From NCBI GenBank assembly GCA_028716965.1, contig JAQUOV010000005.1, forward strand, positions 71,009 through 135,008: 64,000 bases of DNA, in the 5' to 3' direction. The translations under genes and the position numbers were made by a program. Source of the stretch: Candidatus Omnitrophota bacterium (GTDB lineage: Bacteria > Omnitrophota > Gorgyraeia > Gygaellales > Profunditerraquicolaceae). Positions 936 through 61,611 of this stretch are shown in pieces; the stretch's first letter is position 1; every line of letters starts with the position of its first letter. Under the pieces are notes generated by a model. The model was not told where the DNA came from. It ran no database searches and was given only the letters and a program-made list of their open reading frames with translations.

Positions 936-951
936 TTCCTCCCCGAGGAGG

Positions 952-1030
952 ACACCCGCGCAATTTGCGCTACAAAAGCGCACACCGACGCAATACCTAT
1001 TAGCGTCGGGCGTCAATCAATACGGGGTGT
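952..1030. repeat. REP-like 79-bp palindromic element, copy 1 (diverged centre)
   Basis: ACACCCGCGCAATTTGCGC...GCGTCGGGCG...ACGGGGTGT; terminal inverted repeats ACACCCGCGC / GCGCGGGGTGT. Confidence 0.8.
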
Positions 1031-2068: not shown

Positions 2069-2132
2069 TGCCATTTCTTGATCCTCCTTGTGTACAAACA
2101 CACACCGGCCATTCCTTTTGGGCCGGGTGTCT

Positions 2133-5085: not shown

Positions 5086-5176
5086 CCTTTCTATTACAAC
5101 TTCATCATAATAAAGATAAAGTTATTACAGAGTTCCTGCCTGAGGCCTGCCTGACGGCAGTGAAGGCGGGCAGGTT

Positions 5177-6785: not shown

Positions 6786-7225
6786 TTTGCCTCAATCAGG
6801 TCAATGATAGCAGATAAGCCCAAGGTGTAACTTTTTGCCCCAAAACCCATGATTGTACCTTTAGCCACAGGGCTGATCAATGACTTATGCCTGAACTCTT
6901 CGCGGGAATAAATATTGGAAAGATGCACCTCTACCACAATTAATCCGCAGGCGGCGATGGCGTCGCGCACAGCCACGCTTGTATGGGTATAAGCAGCGGG
7001 GTTAATTAAAATACCTTGAAATTTATTTTTGCGCGCCCTGCCGATTAAATCCACAATCAACCCTTCATGGTTAGACTGCCTGATAGCCAAAGAAACCTTG
7101 TCCCTTTTGGCCTGGGCTTTAAGCGTGCGGTTAATTTCGGCTAAAGTCAGGCGGCCATAGATTCCCGGCTCCCTTTTTCCTAAAAGGTCCAAATTAGGCC
7201 CGTGTATGACCAGTATTTTCTTCAA
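6782..7225 (-). CDS. aroQ: 3-dehydroquinate dehydratase type II
   Basis: [24 protein letters not shown]... canonical type II DHQase. Confidence 0.9.
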
Positions 7226-7233
7226 GGCTTCCC

Positions 7234-7264
7234 CCTATATTCTATATACTACATACTATCTACT
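7234..7264. repeat. TA-rich 'TAGTA/TACTA' spacer element (upstream of aroQ)
   Basis: Plus: ctatattctatatactacatactatctactg. The sense (minus) strand reads CAGTAGATAGTATGTAGTATATAGAATATAGGGGG, 12 nt before the start codon. Confidence 0.7.
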
Positions 7265-7267
7265 GCT

Positions 7268-7420
7268 TTATTCCGCCTCATCAATCAACATCACCGGGAT
7301 ACCCTCACGCACAGGATATCTTCTACCGCACTTCTTGCAGACTATTTTATTATCTTTTAACTCCACATCGGCTTTACAGGCAGGACAAGCCAGTATATTC
7401 AACAGCTCTTTATCGATCAT
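7268..7420 (-). CDS. Trm112 family small zinc-ribbon protein
   Basis: MIDKELLNILACPACKADVELKDNKIVCKKCGRRYPVREGIPVMLIDEA; the track ORF's 5' extension runs into the REP element. Confidence 0.75.
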   Translation of the reverse strand: MIDKELLNILACPACKADVELKDNKIVCKKCGRRYPVREGIPVMLIDEAE

Positions 7421-7436
7421 TTTGTCTACAAAGACA

Positions 7437-7515
7437 ACACCCGCGCAATTTGCGCCAGCCTTGCGCACACCAACGCAATTCCTTATTAGCGTTGGGTGCC
7501 ATTAGCGCGGGGTGT
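7437..7515. repeat. REP-like 79-bp palindromic element, copy 2
   Basis: ACACCCGCGCAATTTGCGCCAGCCTTGCGCACACCAACGCAATTCCTTATTAGCGTTGGGTGCCATTAGCGCGGGGTGT; nested inverted repeats. Confidence 0.85.
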
Positions 7516-7941
7516 GTCCTCCCCTGTTCCAGGAGCAAGATAAGCCACCCTTAATTCATAAAGCAGGTTTTCCAAAAGTTTTGTTTCTTCGGGAGTCAGA
7601 TTCCCTTTAGTTTTACCCTGCAACATCCCTAATGTATCAATGATAAATTTTGCCTGGGCAGGGTCTTTTTGAGTTTTTTTGGTCTCCGGATTAACCATAT
7701 GCCCCAAAGCAATGGAAGCCTGTAAAGCAAGAGTAGTAACAAAGAATTTAAAATCCGGGTCAGGGGGGATAAAATTACCCTCCCCTTTATTAGCCAGCTT
7801 TTCCTTCTCTATGTTCTCTTTCCAGACCTCATCAACTTTCTTCTGGCTTCGGCTATCGGAAGCCAAACCATTGCCTTGCGGCTTATGGCTTCGGCTATCG
7901 CAGGCCGAACCCTCGCCTTCCGGTTTCTTTATCTCATCCAT
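7486..7941 (-). CDS. DUF1844-like hypothetical protein; C-terminal end encoded by a REP element, N-terminus contains in-frame 35-bp tandem repeat
   Basis: FIPPDPDFKFFVTTLALQASIALG core; last ~15 codons lie inside REP copy 7437-7515. Confidence 0.5.
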   Translation of the reverse strand: MDEIKKPEGEGSACDSRSHKPQGNGLASDSRSQKKVDEVWKENIEKEKLANKGEGNFIPPDPDFKFFVTTLALQASIALGHMVNPETKKTQKDPAQAKFIIDTLGMLQGKTKGNLTPEETKLLENLLYELRVAYLAPGTGEDTPRANGTQR

Positions 7942-12604: not shown

Positions 12605-12800
12605 GAGAGTACTTACCTGTCTGCCGTAGGCAGACCTGCGATAGGCGATCGACCGGGCTCATAAATCAGCATGTAGAATGTAGTAGGTAGAATATAAAGC
12701 GAACCTGCATTCTTTATTCTACCTTCTACCTACTGACTTACATTACCGTTGCGAGACAGCGCCTGGGATCATACCAGGACTTCCTTCGCCTATCCGGTTT
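12605..12800 (-). promoter_or_regulatory. cobalamin (AdoCbl) riboswitch in btuB leader
   Basis: Minus-strand read GGAAGUCCUGGUAUGAUCCCAGGCGCUGUCUCGCAACGGUAAUG matches the conserved cobalamin-riboswitch core (compare E. coli btuB GGGAAUCCAGUGCGAAUCUGGAGCUGACGCGCAGCGGUAAGG). A 3' B12-box-like GAGCCCGG...GCAGGUCUGCC follows, then a hairpin (GUCUGCC-UAC-GGCAGAC) next to the RBS/ATG. Confidence 0.75.
12671..12740. repeat. two inverted copies of the TA-rich element inside the btuB riboswitch
   Basis: ATGTAGAATGTAGTAGGTAGAATATAAAG...CTTTATTCTACCTTCTACCTACTGACTTAC; the arms are mutually complementary. Confidence 0.7.
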
Positions 12801-16805: not shown

Positions 16806-17351
16806 TTACCTGCCTCCCTGCCTGCCGGCAGGCAGGCCTTTTATCTTTAACGCTATTCCTGAAACAGTGAAAAACACTTCATCAGCTTTATTGGCAACTA
16901 TCTGATTCGCTCTTCCTGCGATATCGCGAAACTCTCTGCCCAGCTTGTTGGCGGGAACCAATCCCAACCCCACTTCATTAGAAACCAGAATTACTTTTGC
17001 TTTCTTCTTATCTAAAACAAATAATAATTCTTCAATCTTCTTAAGGACCTGCTCTTGCTTATTCCCGGCTAAAACTAAATTTGAAACAAAAAGAGTTAAA
17101 CAGTCGATTAGAATACAATCAAAACTGTCACTCATTTTCCCTAATAATTTTGTCAAATCTTTAGGCTCCTCAAAGGTTGTCCAATGTTTTGGCCTTCCCT
17201 CTTTATGCAGCTTGATCCGCTCCCGCATCTCTTTATCCAAACCCTGACAAGTGGCGATAAAGGCGACTTTTTTGTATTTTTTAGCCAGGCTCAAAGCATA
17301 GCTGCTTTTACCACTGCGCGAGCCTCCCAGTATCAACATTATTCTCTTCAT
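16806..17351 (-). CDS. cobU: adenosylcobinamide kinase / adenosylcobinamide-phosphate guanylyltransferase
   Basis: LILGGSRSGKSSYA P-loop; 181 aa. Confidence 0.9.
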   Translation of the reverse strand: MKRIMLILGGSRSGKSSYALSLAKKYKKVAFIATCQGLDKEMRERIKLHKEGRPKHWTTFEEPKDLTKLLGKMSDSFDCILIDCLTLFVSNLVLAGNKQEQVLKKIEELLFVLDKKKAKVILVSNEVGLGLVPANKLGREFRDIAGRANQIVANKADEVFFTVSGIALKIKGLPAGRQGGR

Positions 17352-20699: not shown

Positions 20700-20905
20700 C
20701 TACTTTTCTTTACATAGGCAGGTCTTCTGGCTTGAGTTTCAACCTATTTGCTGCGCCTTCCCATGTTGGCATTTGTCAACACAGTGGCTTTGGCTATTTT
20801 GTAGCCAAACCACAGCCTTGCGGCTAGTGGCTTTCTTTTGCAGCTTTCGTCAACTCTTACAGCGGCGGGACCGCATCCGATTAACGCGCAGGCGTTACAC
20901 CCGCG
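20700..20905 (-). promoter_or_regulatory. cobalamin riboswitch in btuF-btuCD-cobC operon leader
   Basis: Minus-strand read contains GGUUAAUCGGAUGCGGUCCCGCCGCUGUAAG. It also contains GCCACUG (twice), UGGGAAGGC, and a near-perfect B12 box AAGCCAGAAGACCUGCC (plus 20716-20735). The 5' end abuts a REP element. Confidence 0.8.
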
Positions 20906-20975
20906 CAATTTGCGCCAGCCTTGCGCACACCAACGCAATTCCTTATTAGCGTTGGGTGCCATTAGCGCGGGGTGT
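20897..20975. repeat. REP-like 79-bp palindromic element, copy 3 (79/79 identical to copy 2)
   Basis: identical string to 7437-7515; immediately 5' of riboswitch 2 on the minus strand. Confidence 0.85.
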
Positions 20976-36859: not shown

Positions 36860-36924
36860 ATTAGCTCCTTACCCAAAAAGTGTACGCCGGCCGCTACCTT
36901 TCGGGCCGGATGTTAAAAAAATAA

Positions 36925-42124: not shown

Positions 42125-42194
42125 TTATTTTTCCTTTGCTGCGTTACCTAATGCAACCCCTTTAGCTTCGGGCGCCTTTAACGCGGGGTTTGTC

Positions 42195-43407: not shown

Positions 43408-43440
43408 CTTTTCCTTTATTCTATTGAGCTCTTGCGTTTT

Positions 43441-43475
43441 ACCTATATTCTACATTCTATCTGCTACATACTGCC
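43441..43475. repeat. TA-rich spacer element (rplX-rplE junction)
   Basis: acctatattctacattctatctgctacatactgcc. Confidence 0.7.
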
Positions 43476-43787
43476 TTACAGTGCCCCCTTGCAGCTCTTG
43501 CAAAACCTGGATTTTGTGCCGTCTTTTAAGTTCATTATCCCTACTCGGCTGGGCTTGGAACAATGCTTGCAGAAAAGCATAAGGTTAGAAACACTCACCG
43601 GCATTTCAATTGAGAGGATGCCTCCCTTTTGATCCTGGCGGCTCTGGCGTTTATGCTTCTTAGCCAAGTTTAACCCCTCCACTAAAGCCCGAGAGCCGTC
43701 CTCGATAATATTTATTACCTTGCCTTGTTTACCCTTGTCCTTACCCTTGATTATCTGCACAAGGTCATTCTTTTTGATTTTCTGCAT
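43476..43787 (-). CDS. rplX: 50S ribosomal protein L24 (KOW) with C-terminal CxxC...CxxC motif
   Basis: IIKGKDKGKQGKV KOW; C-terminal CKHC...CKSC. Confidence 0.92.
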   Translation of the reverse strand: MQKIKKNDLVQIIKGKDKGKQGKVINIIEDGSRALVEGLNLAKKHKRQSRQDQKGGILSIEMPVSVSNLMLFCKHCSKPSRVGIMNLKDGTKSRFCKSCKGAL

Positions 43788-45831: not shown

Positions 45832-46170
45832 TTATTCTCCAGGTTTTAAATCCAACTCGATTTTTATGTGCGCGGTGCGCTTAACTATTGACGCTGCCCG
45901 CCCAAACGCGGCAGCCTTGAACCTTTTCCACATCGGACCGGGATTACATACAATCTTGGAAACATACAACTTATCCGCCCCAAAACCTTTAACCTTAGCA
46001 TTGGCAATCGCAGATCTTAATATCTTTATTAAATATTCCTTGGCCCTTTTATTCAAATGCAACAAAATACTTTCCGCCTCAACAGCATCTTTGCCGCGGA
46101 TAAGATCCATAACCAACCTGACCTTACTGGGTGAAACCCGTAAAAATTTTCCTTCAGCCTTTGCTATCAT
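45832..46170 (-). CDS. rplV: 50S ribosomal protein L22
   Basis: canonical. Confidence 0.93.
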   Translation of the reverse strand: MIAKAEGKFLRVSPSKVRLVMDLIRGKDAVEAESILLHLNKRAKEYLIKILRSAIANAKVKGFGADKLYVSKIVCNPGPMWKRFKAAAFGRAASIVKRTAHIKIELDLKPGE

Positions 46171-46185
46171 CTTTGCCTTGATTCT

Positions 46186-46213
46186 CCCTACATTCTACCT
46201 ACTATATACTGAC
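46186..46213. repeat. TA-rich spacer element (rpsS-rplV junction)
   Basis: ccctacattctacctactatatactgac. Confidence 0.7.
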
Positions 46214-46214
46214 T

Positions 46215-46502
46215 TTACGTCTTCTCCAGCGCTTTTTTGGCTTTGATACCGCCGTGTTTCCTGAAGATCCTGGAAGGAGAGAACTCACCCAATTTATGTC
46301 CTACCATATTCTCGGTGATAAAAACCGGGATATGCCTTTTGCCGTCATAAACCGCAAAAGTCAAACCTACAAAATCAGGGGTTATAGTGGAACGACGGCT
46401 CCAGGTCTTGATCGCTTGACGCTGTCCGCTCTTAATATACCTTTCAACCTTCTTTAATAAACTCTCTTCGACGTATGGGCCCTTCTTCAATGAACGCGGC
46501 AT
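46215..46502 (-). CDS. rpsS: 30S ribosomal protein S19
   Basis: canonical. Confidence 0.95.
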
Positions 46503-46504
46503 AA

Positions 46505-47341
46505 TTATGGTTTCCTTCTCTTAATAATGAATTTATTGGAATATTTATTACGGTTCCTGGTGCGGTAACCCTTGGTAGGTTTACCCCAGGGAGTAACCGG
46601 GTGCGGATTACCCTGACCGGATTTACCTTCGCCACCGCCATGAGGATGGTCAACAGGATTCATTACCACGCCCCTTACCGAAGGTTTAATACCCAGCCAG
46701 CGGTTTTTGCCTGCCTTGCCTAAAATCAGGGATTCATGTTCAATATTTCCAATCTGGCCGATAGTTGCGTGGCAATCCAGGCTCACCAATCTTACCTCAC
46801 CGGAAGGCAGCCTGATATGCGCAAAATCACCTTCTTTTGCCATAATCTGAGCACTGGTTCCTGCCCCGCGGACGATTTGCCCGCCCTTACCCTTGAATAA
46901 TTCTATATTATGAATAAGGGTGCCGGAAGGGATATTGCGCAAAAGAAGGCAATTGCCTGCTTTTATCTCCATATCTTTCTGGTTGCTGGATATAATTACG
47001 TCCTCCACGTTAAGGCCCACCGGAGCAATAATATACCTTTTCTCTTTATTTGGATATTCTACCAAAGCAATCCTTGCTGAACGGTTAGGGTCATATTCAA
47101 TAGCCAGCACCCTTGCCGGCTGGTCATAAATATTACGCTTAAAATCAACTATGCGCAGCATGCGCTTATGCCCGCCGCCGATATGCCTGGTAGTTATACG
47201 GCCGTAACAATTCCTTCCGCCGGTTTTCTTAAGCGGCAACAACAGGGAACGTTCCGGTTTATGTTTGGTAATTTCGGAGAAATCCGGCCCGCTCATATGC
47301 CTTCTTGACGGTGTTGTCGGTTTAAATTTTATTGTCCCCAT
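46505..47341 (-). CDS. rplB: 50S ribosomal protein L2
   Basis: canonical (GRNxxGxITxRHxGGGHK). Confidence 0.96.
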
Positions 47342-47366
47342 ATTTTTATTCTTCTTTTTGATTTTC

Positions 47367-47400
47367 CCTATATTCTACATACTATATACTACATACTGTC
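47367..47400. repeat. TA-rich spacer element (rplW-rplB junction)
   Basis: ccctatattctacatactatatactacatactgtc. Confidence 0.7.
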
Positions 47401-47409
47401 TTTTAATGC

Positions 47410-50577: not shown

Positions 50578-52674
50578 TTAAAAAGTTTTTCTTGCGCCCG
50601 AATTCACTGCTCCTGAAACAATTTTCTCCGCTACATGCGTAGGAACCTCGCTGTAAAAGGAAGGTTCCATTGTATACGATGCACGACCCTGTGTCAAGGA
50701 TCTTGTTATAGTTGCGTAATTGAAAACTTCGGACAACGGGACATTCGCTCGGATAGTGCGTAAATTCAATCTCTGCCCAAGGGCAATAATCTTGGCGCGT
50801 CGGCTGCTTAAATCGCCTATGATCTGCCCCATGAACTCCTCGGGAACAATTACTTCAATATCCATAATCGGCTCTAATAATACCGGATGCGCTTTCCTCA
50901 TCCCGTCCTGGAAAGCAATGGAGCCTGCCATTTTAAAAGCCAGCTCCGAGGAATCAACCTCATGGAATGAGCCGTCTACTAAAACAACATTCACGTCGGT
51001 AACAGGATAACCTGCCAGGACTCCGTTTTTAGCCGCGCCCAATACCCCCTGCTTTACCGCGGGGATAAATTCACGCGGGATAGAACCGCTTTTGATTTTG
51101 TCCTCAAAAGTAATCCCTGTGCCGGGCGTCTCCTGCGGGCTCATTTCTATAACACAATGTCCATATTGCCCGCGGCCTCCGGATTGCGAAATAAATTTAC
51201 CGACGCTGGAAACACTTTTCTTGATTGTCTCACGGTATGCAACCTGCGGAGCGCCTACCTGCGCTTCTACATTAAATTCACGCAAAATCCTGTCAATAAT
51301 TATTTCCAAATGCAGCTGCCCCATCCCGGCAATAAGCGTCTGTCCGGTCTCATGGTTATAAGTCACCCTGAAAGAGGGGTCTTCATCCTCCAGCTTGTGC
51401 ATTGCCAGGCCCAATTTCTCCTGGGCATCTTTTGACTTAGGCTCAATCGCCTGCTGGATAACCGGTTCCGGAAAACGCATAGCTTCTATAAGGATAGGAT
51501 TCTTTTCGGTACACAACGTATCTCCGGTTTTAGTGTCCTTTAAGCCGACAGCCGCGGCTATATCTCCGGTAGAAATACTCTCCACCACCTCCTGGCGGTT
51601 GGCATGCATCTTGACGATCTTGGTCACCCTCTCTCTTTCTCTCTTAGAGGCGTTGTAAATATAGGTTCCGGAGGCAAGTGTGCCGGAATACATTCTTATA
51701 AAATAGATTTTACCCACAAATGGGTCTGTGGCTACTTTAAAACATAAAGCGGTAAAAGGGCTCTTGTCATCCGCAATCACCTCTTCAAATTCACCTGTAT
51801 CCGGATGCGTGCCTTTTACCGCGGGCACCTCTACCGGAGAAGGCAGATAATTTTTTACCGCGTCTAAAACAAGCTGCACGCCCTTGTTTTTAAAAGCAGA
51901 GCCGCAAAGTACCGGCACGAACTTGTTGGCAATTACGGTTTTACGGATCGTTTCCTTAATCTGCTCATTGGTTATTGTCTTACCCTGCAGGTAATCCTCC
52001 ATGATCAAATCATCCGCTTCAGCTAATTTCTCAATAAGGATCAGGCGATATTTCTCAAAATCTCCGAGCATATCTTCAGGGACATCTTTTAACTCAATCT
52101 CTTTGCCTAAATCGTCTTTATATAAGACCAGCTTTTTATCAACTAAATCCACAATCCCCCTGAAGTCAGCTTCCCTGCCAAAAGGGATCTGGATTGCCGC
52201 CACATTTGCTCCCAGCCTTTTATGCATCTGGTCAATCACTTCGAAGAAATCCGAGCCCGTGCGGTCCATTTTATTTACAAAAGCAATACGCGGAACACTA
52301 TAACGGTCTGCCTGGCGCCATACGGTTTCCGATTGCGGCTCAACTCCGCCGACACCGCAGAATACGACCACCGCGCCGTCTAAGACCTTTAGCGACCTTT
52401 CTACCTCAATAGTAAAATCCACGTGGCCCGGAGTATCAATAAGGTTAATCGTTACATCCTTCCAGGTGCAAGTAGTAGCAGCAGCGGTAATGGTAATTCC
52501 CCTTTCCTGTTCCTGGACCATCCAATCCATGGTTGCCGCGCCATCATGGACCTCTCCAATCTTATAGTTCCTGCCCGTATAAAACAGGATACGCTCGCTG
52601 GTAGTAGTCTTGCCAGCATCTATATGGGCGATTATCCCGATATTCCTTATTTTGTCTAACGCTATTTTTCTCAT
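50578..52674 (-). CDS. fusA: elongation factor G
   Basis: 698 aa, AHIDAGKTT. Confidence 0.97.
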
Positions 52675-52689
52675 CTCTTTTTTGCTTTT

Positions 52690-52724
52690 CCCTGCATACT
52701 ATATACTACCTACTACATACTGAC
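52690..52724. repeat. TA-rich spacer element (rpsG-fusA junction)
   Basis: ccctgcatactatatactacctactacatactgac. Confidence 0.7.
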
Positions 52725-52727
52725 TTT

Positions 52728-53198
52728 TTACCAGCGGAAATGCGCATAGGCTTTATTTGATTCAGCCATCTTATGCGTATCATCCCTTTTCTTAATCGCT
52801 GACCCTTCACCTTTATAGGCAGCAATAATTTCATCGGCCAGCTTTTCCTGCATAGGCTTACCCTTCCTATGCTGCGCGAAATCCCTGATCCAGCGCAAGG
52901 CAATGGAAGTTCCGCGTTCCTGTCTGACCTCTATAGGAACCTGATAAGTAGCTCCTCCGACCCTGCGCGGTTTTACTTCCAGGCGCGGCCGGGCATTATC
53001 CAATGCCTTATAAAATACCTTTAAAATATCCTGTTCATTTAAATTCTTCTGGGCAATATCAAAAGCACTATAAACCAGCTTTTCTGCAACTGATTTCTTG
53101 CCCTCAACCATAACCATATTGATAAACTTGGCTACTATCTTGCTGTTAAACTTAGGATCCGCTAGAATATTTTTTTCCTGCGCTTTTCTTCTTCTCAT
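52728..53198 (-). CDS. rpsG: 30S ribosomal protein S7
   Basis: canonical. Confidence 0.95.
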   Translation of the reverse strand: MRRRKAQEKNILADPKFNSKIVAKFINMVMVEGKKSVAEKLVYSAFDIAQKNLNEQDILKVFYKALDNARPRLEVKPRRVGGATYQVPIEVRQERGTSIALRWIRDFAQHRKGKPMQEKLADEIIAAYKGEGSAIKKRDDTHKMAESNKAYAHFRW

Positions 53199-61053: not shown

Positions 61054-61168
61054 AATCCCTTATGGCTTTGGCTATCAGAAGCCAAACCATAACCCTGTAA
61101 TTAATGGCTAAATTCAGCCTATCTTTAGTTACTTTAGTTTAATTAAATTTACTTATACTTACTTAAAC

Positions 61169-61552
61169 TTACTTTAACTCTACGGTTGCTCCGGCTGCTT
61201 CCAGTTTCTTTTTCATTTCAGCAGCTTCATCTTTAGTAGCGCCTTCTTTAACGGCTTTAGGAGCAGCATCTACTAAATCCTTAGCTTCTTTCAGCCCTAA
61301 GCTTGTAATAGCGCGGACCTCTTTAATTACCGCGATTTTATTCGCTCCGGAACTAACCAGCATTACGGTAAATACGCTTTTCTCCTCGGCTGCAGCAGCC
61401 GGGGCAGCAGCACCGGCGCTAGGTGCAGCCATCATCGGCATATTCGCACTTACGCCAAACTTTTCTTCTAAAGCTTTAACTAAGTCCGAGAGCTCTAAAA
61501 CACTCATCGTCTCTATTGACTTGATTAATTCTTCCATTTTCTCGGTTGCCAT
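61169..61552 (-). CDS. rplL: 50S ribosomal protein L7/L12
   Basis: [34 protein letters not shown]...; the track ORF's 10-codon 5' extension runs into REP copy 4. Confidence 0.93.
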
Positions 61553-61578
61553 TTCTTCCTCCTTTGTCCACCCGGACA

Positions 61579-61611
61579 ACACCCGCGCAATTTGCGCTAA
61601 GCGCGGGGTGT
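61579..61611. repeat. REP-like element, minimal 33-bp hairpin form (copy 4)
   Basis: ACACCCGCGCAATTTGCGCTAAGCGCGGGGTGT between rplJ and rplL. Confidence 0.75.

Follow-up and report, generated by a model that had tools for sequence, protein, structure and literature searches.

A lineage-wide family of self-nesting hairpin modules at intercistronic junctions of Candidatus Omnitrophota

Genes and repeats of the window

The window, i.e. the whole 64-kb stretch of DNA analysed here, comes from a Candidatus Omnitrophota bacterium and carries its genes almost exclusively on one strand. Approximately 97% of the bases in long ORFs are on the minus strand and the plus strand has a GC skew of about -0.15 across the window; extreme bias of this kind is also found in related loci. 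The genes include the series Memo-DUF1844-Trm112-aroQ-pepP-efp-accB-accC-Asp23-x-PFK-SIS, which is found in the same order in L061-L065 (L-numbers designate the retrieved loci that were compared with the window), and a number of ribosomal protein genes. A cobalamin riboswitch (RF00174, 50 bits, 20700-20885, minus), in which the usual P4 hairpin is missing in the Rfam alignment, lies upstream of genes for a btuF-like periplasmic binding protein and a btuC-like permease. A match to a sigma-70-like promoter is present at 21064-21037 (TTGACA-16-TAAAGT with TG).

Dispersed among these genes is a family of short palindromic elements. The 19-mer ACACCCGCGCAATTTGCGC has exact matches at positions 952, 7437, 20897 and 61579 of the 64-kb window, all on the plus strand; 0.01 matches are expected in dinucleotide shuffles, and none of 100 shuffles contained four or more. 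The window genes are on the minus strand, and the transcribed form of the element is therefore the reverse complement of the sequence by which the initial annotation had described it. That annotation counted four copies. The 19-mer and the shuffles show that a dispersed family is real, but the window holds five intact copies and two decayed ones, all in sense orientation to the surrounding genes (Table 1). A covariance model of one module identifies five significant modules, namely the inner modules of the three compound copies and the simple units at 61560-61611 and 2085-2130. There are 7 elements in the 64 kb of the window, and unbiased loci contain 0.5-1.2 per 10 kb. Simple units measure 29-33 nt, and every copy is either intergenic or overlaps the end of a gene.

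Copies 2 and 3 are identical at 79 of 79 positions, and copy 1 is 68% identical without gaps, its outer 5' arm (ACACCCCGUAU) being decayed in part. Both the identity and the divergence had been recognised from the outset. Copy 4 had been described as a minimal 33-bp hairpin in the spacer between rplJ and rplL; the hairpin is 33 nt long and lies where it was placed, but the small hairpin that adjoins it, and those that adjoin the three other listed copies, were overlooked.

Table 1. Members of the hairpin family in the window and the genes or signals that they adjoin.
Feature	Position	Strand	Context and score
Compound copy 1, outer hairpin with nested module	952..1030	-	PFK to SIS (gmhA-like) spacer; inner module 962-1013, 67.9 bits
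Small hairpin of copy 1, CCUCC-UCGG-GGAGG	938..951	-	its 3' arm forms the SIS Shine-Dalgarno sequence
Diverged simple module, ACACCCGGCC...GGCCGGUGU, with small hairpin UGUGU-UUGU-ACACA	2085..2130	-	precisely in the gap that separates the 202-aa gene's stop codon from the PFK AGGAGG; covariance model 40.9 bits, E 1e-9
Compound copy 2	7437..7515	-	between DUF1844 and trm112
Small hairpin of copy 2, UGUCU-UUGU-AGACA	7423..7436	-	followed by AA and the trm112 AUG (7420-7418)
Compound copy 3, identical to copy 2	20897..20975	-	5' leader, between sigma-70-like promoter (21064-21037) and cobalamin riboswitch
Small hairpin of copy 3, AACGC-CUGC-GCGUU	20883..20896	-	
Simple module, copy 4 (33-nt hairpin)	61579..61611	-	rplJ to rplL spacer; 40.6 bits
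Small hairpin of copy 4, UGUCC-GGGU-GGACA	61565..61578	-	followed by AAGGAGG-N5-AUG of rplL
Degenerate simple unit, ACAUCCGGCC...GGCCGGCGU	36866..36913	-	directly upstream of AAGGAG and AUG of rpsM (S13); covariance model 13.1 bits, E 0.1
Remnant, 5' half only	42148..42189	-	rpsH to rplF spacer; nhmmer E 0.024

Several elements distort the gene calls around them. Copy 2 supplies the end of the DUF1844 ORF (7486-7941), although not with the approximately 15 codons first proposed: it contributes 9 codons (TPRANGTQR) and the stop, homologues ending in ...APETGEVK and the window protein in ...GED-TPRANGTQR*. Two suspected false 5' extensions proved to be just that. The listed trm112 ORF (7268-7468, 66 aa) is longer than the gene that begins at the true start at 7420 (50 aa; Pfam Trm112p), and the listed gmhA-like ORF (354-1016, 220 aa) shrinks to 354-932 (192 aa), as in L061/L064. 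Among L7/L12 homologues, P0134, P0137, P0147, P0158, P0174, P0212, P0218 and P0237 are 134-144 aa long, as against the usual 125-128; the 7-17 additional residues are probably a false 5' extension into the element. Modules thus give false 5' extensions or altered 3' ends in the gene calls of Omnitrophota MAGs (trm112, the gmhA-like gene, DUF1844 and probably some L7/L12 entries), and the module covariance model would flag such errors.

Architecture of the module

On the gene-sense strand the basic module consists of a big hairpin, a small hairpin and AA, in this order. The big hairpin has a 10-bp stem with a bulged C, ACACC(C)CGCGC, an 11-12-nt loop that is free of C (e.g., UAAUAGGUAUU), and the 3' arm GCGCGGGUGU. 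The small hairpin has a stem of 4-5 bp, the sequence of which varies between copies, and a loop of approximately 4 nt. In all aligned copies the module termini are ACAC...GUGU. The 79-nt form is an outer big hairpin that holds a complete inner module in its loop (CACCCAACGC...GCGUUGGUG and GCGC-AAGGCUG-GCGC, then AAAUU). Terminal inverted repeats are present, the arms of the outer stem being 10 and 11 nt, and so is the internal second palindrome noted in the initial annotation (CACCAACGC...GCGTTGGGTG), but the long form is one module nested in another and not a single element. In relatives the nesting reaches three levels (L010, L017, L021, L052, L006), and units also form head-to-tail, i.e. 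direct, tandem arrays (L001, L052, L068, L021, L017).

The small hairpin is an integral part of the module, since reversed copies keep it on the GGGUGU side (read in L066/L067 and L069). That it is a pre-existing target, or a product of selection at the Shine-Dalgarno sequence, was considered and rejected because empty sites have no small hairpin and reversed copies carry it on the same side. Copies 2 and 3 combine an identical 79-nt core with unrelated small hairpins, so that a model in which the whole module is copied fails unless gene conversion took place later. Their identical cores suggest either gene conversion or a copying event limited to the core. The identity breaks off precisely at the foot of the outer stem, which is what a unit that had been copied or converted would show, in agreement with the initial suggestion of mobility or gene conversion.

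Compensatory change was assessed in two alignments. An ordinary MAFFT alignment of 30 modules, unfitted to the structure, has changes on both sides in 12 of the 18 proposed pairs. In 57 modules aligned to the model, an alignment that is fitted and hence leans toward it, pairing is intact in 98.4% of cells and compensatory changes are seen in 13 of 15 pairs; slid controls of the same alignment are 20-51% paired. None of 500 shuffles reached the observed values in either case. The bulged base is C in 55 of the 57 modules. G·U and U·G pairs together number 49 in this set (13 without the terminal pair), as against 2 for A·C and C·A, and this asymmetry indicates that it is the gene-sense strand that folds, as RNA or as single-stranded DNA. 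AGG, GGA or GGU is present in 38 of 50 apical loops, and CCU, UCC or ACC in 0 of 50. Alternative pairings compete in minimum free energy folds, the z-scores of which are modest (-1.7 to -3.9). The base pairs have been kept by compensatory substitutions on the transcribed strand, which may also be read as single-stranded DNA.

Position and orientation relative to genes

In about 80% of top-level copies, the end of the element and the motif (A)AGGAG(G)-N(5-9)-AUG downstream of it are 0-3 nt apart. Judged by eye, a Shine-Dalgarno sequence and start codon follow directly after approximately 31-33 of 41 non-redundant copies. A sense ORF starts within 20 nt at ~41 of 55 top-level loci, and at ~33 of the 55 a sense ORF ends no more than 20 nt upstream or runs into the element; in L008, L010, L011 and L017 the upstream ORFs extend 1-13 nt into it. 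Genes with an element in front include rplL, rplF, rpsH and rpsM (by Pfam, in the window), while rpmI, groES and acpP, assigned from N-terminal peptides only, are further genes found behind one. The ribosome-binding sites of the other genes in the window have no comparable small hairpin.

Approximately 95% of copies are sense to genes. Only three independent reversed copies were found, in L023, in the tRNA-Thr to rpmG spacer of L066/L067, and in the spacer downstream of secD in L069, and all three are outside tight operon junctions. The initial annotation had missed this sense bias, as well as the placement flush at the Shine-Dalgarno sequence and the conservation across Omnitrophota species described below.

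Gene sense coincides with the lagging-strand template in these genomes, where genes are almost all co-oriented. Gene and replication direction are thus confounded, and no separation of the two was possible in the loci examined, nearly all being co-oriented; the orientation bias and the G·U asymmetry are equally explicable by single-strand DNA transposition on the lagging-strand template. Similarly, placement flush at the Shine-Dalgarno sequence might simply reflect the one spot that is tolerated in very short spacers.

Gain, loss and persistence at orthologous junctions

In L061-L065 the DUF1844 and trm112 genes overlap at ATGA and have no element between them. Copy 2 is therefore an insertion of approximately 93 nt, one that split a translationally coupled gene pair and replaced the end of DUF1844. 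Presence or absence at orthologous loci, raised in the initial annotation in connection with mobility, is seen here and at the junction between the 202-aa gene and PFK: in L061/L064 both copy 2 and the unit at 2085-2130 are missing. Relatives in turn carry units at junctions where the window has none. Gain or loss is evident at seven junctions (DUF1844/trm112, 202aa/PFK, EF-P/accB, rpsL/rpsG, rplJ/rplL, upstream of rpsH, and tRNA-Thr/rpmG). The ancestral spacers are only 0-25 nt long. No consistent target-site duplication was found at three clean filled/empty pairs (EF-P to accB, 202aa to PFK, DUF1844 to trm112); GACA was considered as such a duplication at copy 2, but the other copies do not support it.

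Other sites are occupied in different species, namely the PFK to SIS spacer, the rplJ to rplL spacer and the btuF leader. Between PFK and SIS there is a simple unit in L061/L064, as against the nested form of the window. All three share an SD-sequestering stem, CCUCC-loop-GGAGG, as the small hairpin, although the loops differ. The rplJ to rplL spacer is empty in L067 (14 nt), simple in the window, L014, L066 and L069, tandem in L068, and nested in L032. The stem of the simple unit in L069 covaries, and the units of the window and L066 have 3-4 differences in 33 nt. At the rpsH to rplF junction, L001/L029 have an intact simple unit where the window has only the remnant at 42148-42189.

The orthologue of copy 3 in L051 is identical at 78 of 79 positions. 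An apparent ultra-conservation of this 79-mer (98.7%, versus ~80% in the coding flanks of L051) was withdrawn, the whole btuF leader being approximately 92-95% identical there and the rplJ to rplL unit having the differences given above. Within this leader the small hairpin is the most variable stretch; in L051 it reads GACAC-CUGU-GUGUC, with two compensatory pair changes.

The initial annotation had treated a mobile repeat and a conserved part of leaders as alternatives. This is a false choice and both hold, since gain and loss are seen, yet several sites are occupied across species. New modules arise in the loop of an existing module or in the short interval that separates a stop codon from the Shine-Dalgarno sequence of the following gene. 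The members of this family, which is real, structured and dispersed, have come and gone, have nested in one another and have at times persisted for long.

Other repeats in the window

A second family of small hairpin repeats, with the core GGUUUGGCU-loop-AGCCAAAGCC, is present at 7840-7932, 20782-20832 and 61059-61109, and also in L064 at about 2075 (minus). In the rplL to rpoB spacer it forms a 42-nt insertion relative to L066/L067, which has a direct AGCCAU repeat at its bounds and ends directly 5' of the Shine-Dalgarno sequence AAGGGA. Inside the cobalamin riboswitch it forms a 37-nt insertion relative to L051, bounded by AGCCA. Two tandem copies in DUF1844 are read in frame and give the protein an N-terminal KPQGNGLASDSRS repeat, variable among homologues. 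The rplL to rpoB spacer (61110-61170; also in L066-L069) contains in addition four to six UAAGUAA repeats with a period of approximately 10 nt, which are conserved across relatives.

A third repeat family is non-palindromic, with a periodicity of approximately 7 nt (sense CAGUAUGUAGUAUAUAGUAUGUAGAAUAUAGGG). It is found at 7207-7271, 43415-43479, 46160-46224, 47340-47404 and 52664-52728, with an inverted pair at 12662-12747. These repeats occupy intercistronic spacers, several of them in the ribosomal protein gene region, 10-35 nt before start codons. A further pair of GC-rich palindromes that are related to each other, GGCCUGCCUGCCGGCAGGCAGG, is located at 5143-5169 and 16813-16839, one in the EF-P to accB spacer and one just before a gene start.

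Distribution and comparison with known repeat systems

Exact matches to the 19-mer were found at 23 loci in a one-genome-per-species collection. The full architecture is present at 15 of these, from 10 genome assemblies: 14 loci belong to nine Candidatus Omnitrophota assemblies and one to an unclassified 'bacterium'. The 8 loci outside Omnitrophota were rejected as family members; they have no palindromic partner, and approximately 4 random matches, i.e. the same order, are expected in 596 Gb. A scan of metagenomes yielded 37 loci, ~25 of them with the full architecture, and about 20 metagenome contigs are counted as carrying it; no copy was found on viral contigs. Modules are also present in syntenic loci that were fetched via their proteins, and hence not ascertained by the repeat, and further copies lacking the 19-mer were recovered by profile and covariance model. 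The family is thus lineage-wide in Candidatus Omnitrophota, with one consensus common to many species. No family in Rfam 15 matches the element at its gathering threshold; a permissive scan gave only noise at E>2, and the only match in the window was the cobalamin riboswitch. The searchable literature contains no description of this repeat family, which is apparently undescribed.

In general terms the family consists of interspersed palindromic repeats presumably co-transcribed with genes, resembling REPs and MITEs. The initial designation of a non-autonomous REP- or MITE-like repeat is apt insofar as the family is palindromic, non-coding, non-autonomous and dispersed, but it departs from REPs in the strict sense and from classical MITEs. 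It is set apart by recursive nesting, an asymmetric two-hairpin module, sense bias together with adjacency to ribosome-binding sites, and a consensus common to many species of one phylum.

The REP, BIME and REPIN sequences of Proteobacteria, which are mobilised by RAYT, are likewise short imperfect palindromes of 20-40 nt with a conserved mismatch or bulge, extragenic, multi-copy and clustered, and co-transcription would presumably be a further likeness. Unlike REPs, the Omnitrophota modules do not have the 5' GT[AG]G tetranucleotide, their termini being ACAC...GUGU, and their tandem units are direct, with no alternating or inverted doublets. They are strongly sense-oriented and usually lie flush at the downstream Shine-Dalgarno sequence rather than after the last gene of an operon. 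Recursive nesting and a multi-species consensus are peculiar to the Omnitrophota modules; REP consensus sequences normally differ between species. From work on the malE-malF REP and by Liang, Rudd and Deutscher in 2015, REP hairpins are said to stabilise upstream mRNA and to lower upstream translation when they lie within ~15 nt of the stop codon.

MITEs with structured transcripts, such as the Correia/NEMIS elements of Neisseria, ERIC, and the RUP and BOX elements of pneumococcus, are co-transcribed with neighbouring genes and fold in the mRNA; Correia elements are targets of RNase III, and BOX is modular. The Omnitrophota modules resemble them in small size, lack of autonomy, inverted-repeat termini and presence or absence at orthologous sites. 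They differ in having no target-site duplication at the three clean pairs, in the asymmetry of a module made of a big and a small hairpin, in strong orientation, and in insertion into their own loop. Among the loci examined, none held an IS that shares the module termini and could be its parent.

Two further systems are similar in their relation to genes. The MIRUs of mycobacteria, reportedly described by Supply and colleagues in 1997, are said to be intercistronic in operons, to be oriented as the flanking genes and to touch the stop or start codons of their neighbours. Intercistronic location, gene orientation and contact with stop and start codons are found in the Omnitrophota modules as well; however, MIRUs are tandem direct repeats with small coupling ORFs, whereas these modules are hairpins. 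A coupling mini-ORF was considered here too and discarded, as other copies do not retain the AUG seen in copies 2 and 3. The Rickettsia palindromic elements (RPE) are also palindromic repeats that enter reading frames, as copy 2 does at the C-terminus of DUF1844. By contrast, RPE insertions are in frame inside genes and become segments of the protein, while the Omnitrophota modules alter only the last few codons and are usually intergenic.

Origin and possible role

On balance it seems probable, if far from certain, that these elements are a lineage-wide family of short, non-autonomous hairpin modules that spread by copy-and-paste and that may have a role as intercistronic RNA. Given that nearly all copies are inside operons and in sense orientation, they would be transcribed within polycistronic mRNA. 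The most likely consequence would be a stable intercistronic RNA structure in the operon mRNA, which might uncouple cistrons and shield mRNA ends from nucleases, such that segments of one operon mRNA would differ in stability. The small hairpin might act as an insulator that keeps the downstream ribosome-binding site unpaired. The SIS gene would be an exception, its ribosome-binding site being predicted to be sequestered by the small hairpin. The orientation bias may result from selection, reversed copies being disfavoured as they would expose anti-SD-like CCU loops in the mRNA. For the copying enzyme, our leading guess is a single-strand, hairpin-recognising protein of the HUH/RAYT type.

Such an enzyme might equally drive an element with no RNA role at all. 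A selfish element derived from REP/REPIN or IS200/IS605 sequences, folded as single-stranded DNA and moved by an HUH enzyme (RAYT/TnpA-type) encoded elsewhere, would owe its orientation to the lagging-strand template and its position to tolerance; we regard this as a serious rival, although a somewhat unlikely one. The palindrome, the conserved bulged base and the strand-specific wobble pairs typify hairpins that are read on a single DNA strand, the lagging-strand template is here the sense strand, and insertion polymorphisms, nesting and tandem arrays argue in the same direction. With ancestral spacers as short as those described above, the interval from stop codon to Shine-Dalgarno sequence is nearly the sole neutral slot. 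However, the modules have neither GTAG or another REP signature nor alternating orientation, and a crude IS200 TnpA query gave no tblastn match to a Y1 transposase, RAYT included, in the window and approximately 455 kb of element-bearing loci; within this scope it agrees with the initial statement that no transposase lies in the window. Moreover, the consensus persists across species with coding flanks only ~74-85% identical in DNA, some sites stay occupied across species while the form of the element changes, and reversed copies lie 3 kb from sense copies on the same replichore.

In a more speculative and, to us, unlikely reading, the module would act in cis as a regulatory RNA part that is also mobile: its hairpins, bound by protein or presenting SD-like loops, would form a platform that sets the stability and translation of single cistrons genome-wide in long Omnitrophota operons; it would spread by a hairpin-specific single-strand mechanism inserting into earlier loops, giving fractal-like nests. 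A conserved cis-regulatory RNA motif that is not mobile and has spread rarely by duplication, with a dedicated binding protein and a function as RNase processing site or as translational operator or enhancer of highly expressed genes, is improbable. Sense orientation, covariation and the invariant bulged C fit a protein-binding hairpin, the loops are SD-like, occupancy is conserved at rplJ-rplL, PFK-SIS and the btuF leader, and the element often precedes highly expressed genes, but the genes downstream of the elements share no common function. Lineage-specific gains and losses are many, even among close relatives; a module has split coupled genes and rewritten a protein C-terminus; reversed copies exist; and some nested or tandem arrays lie outside mRNAs or behind terminators. 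Far less credible still are orphan integron attC-like sites, or parts of riboswitch or ribosomal-protein leaders. attC sites are imperfect palindromes with extrahelical bases that lie between ORFs in fixed orientation, a description that the modules resemble in being palindromic, inter-ORF and of fixed orientation. They nevertheless have no R''/R' core sites (RYYYAAC / GTTRRRY), their termini being ACACC/GGUGU, and their neighbours are syntenic core housekeeping genes and not cassettes. A leader is suggested by the Rfam alignment of the cobalamin riboswitch, which runs into copy 3, but the element is found at many unrelated genes. The element was rejected as a part of the riboswitch, since the overlap comes from the low-confidence end of a global alignment in which P1 pairs are non-canonical.

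The activity that mobilises the modules may be of an unfamiliar kind, since self-nesting, the absence of target-site duplications and an integral but variable small hairpin are a poor fit to a textbook REP or MITE. The junction from stop codon to ribosome-binding site, which they occupy, strongly influences translational coupling and the stability of mRNA. Between them, the rplJ-rplL and PFK-SIS spacers exist in empty, simple, tandem and nested states, a natural series within a repeat family that is common to many species of a poorly known, uncultured phylum.
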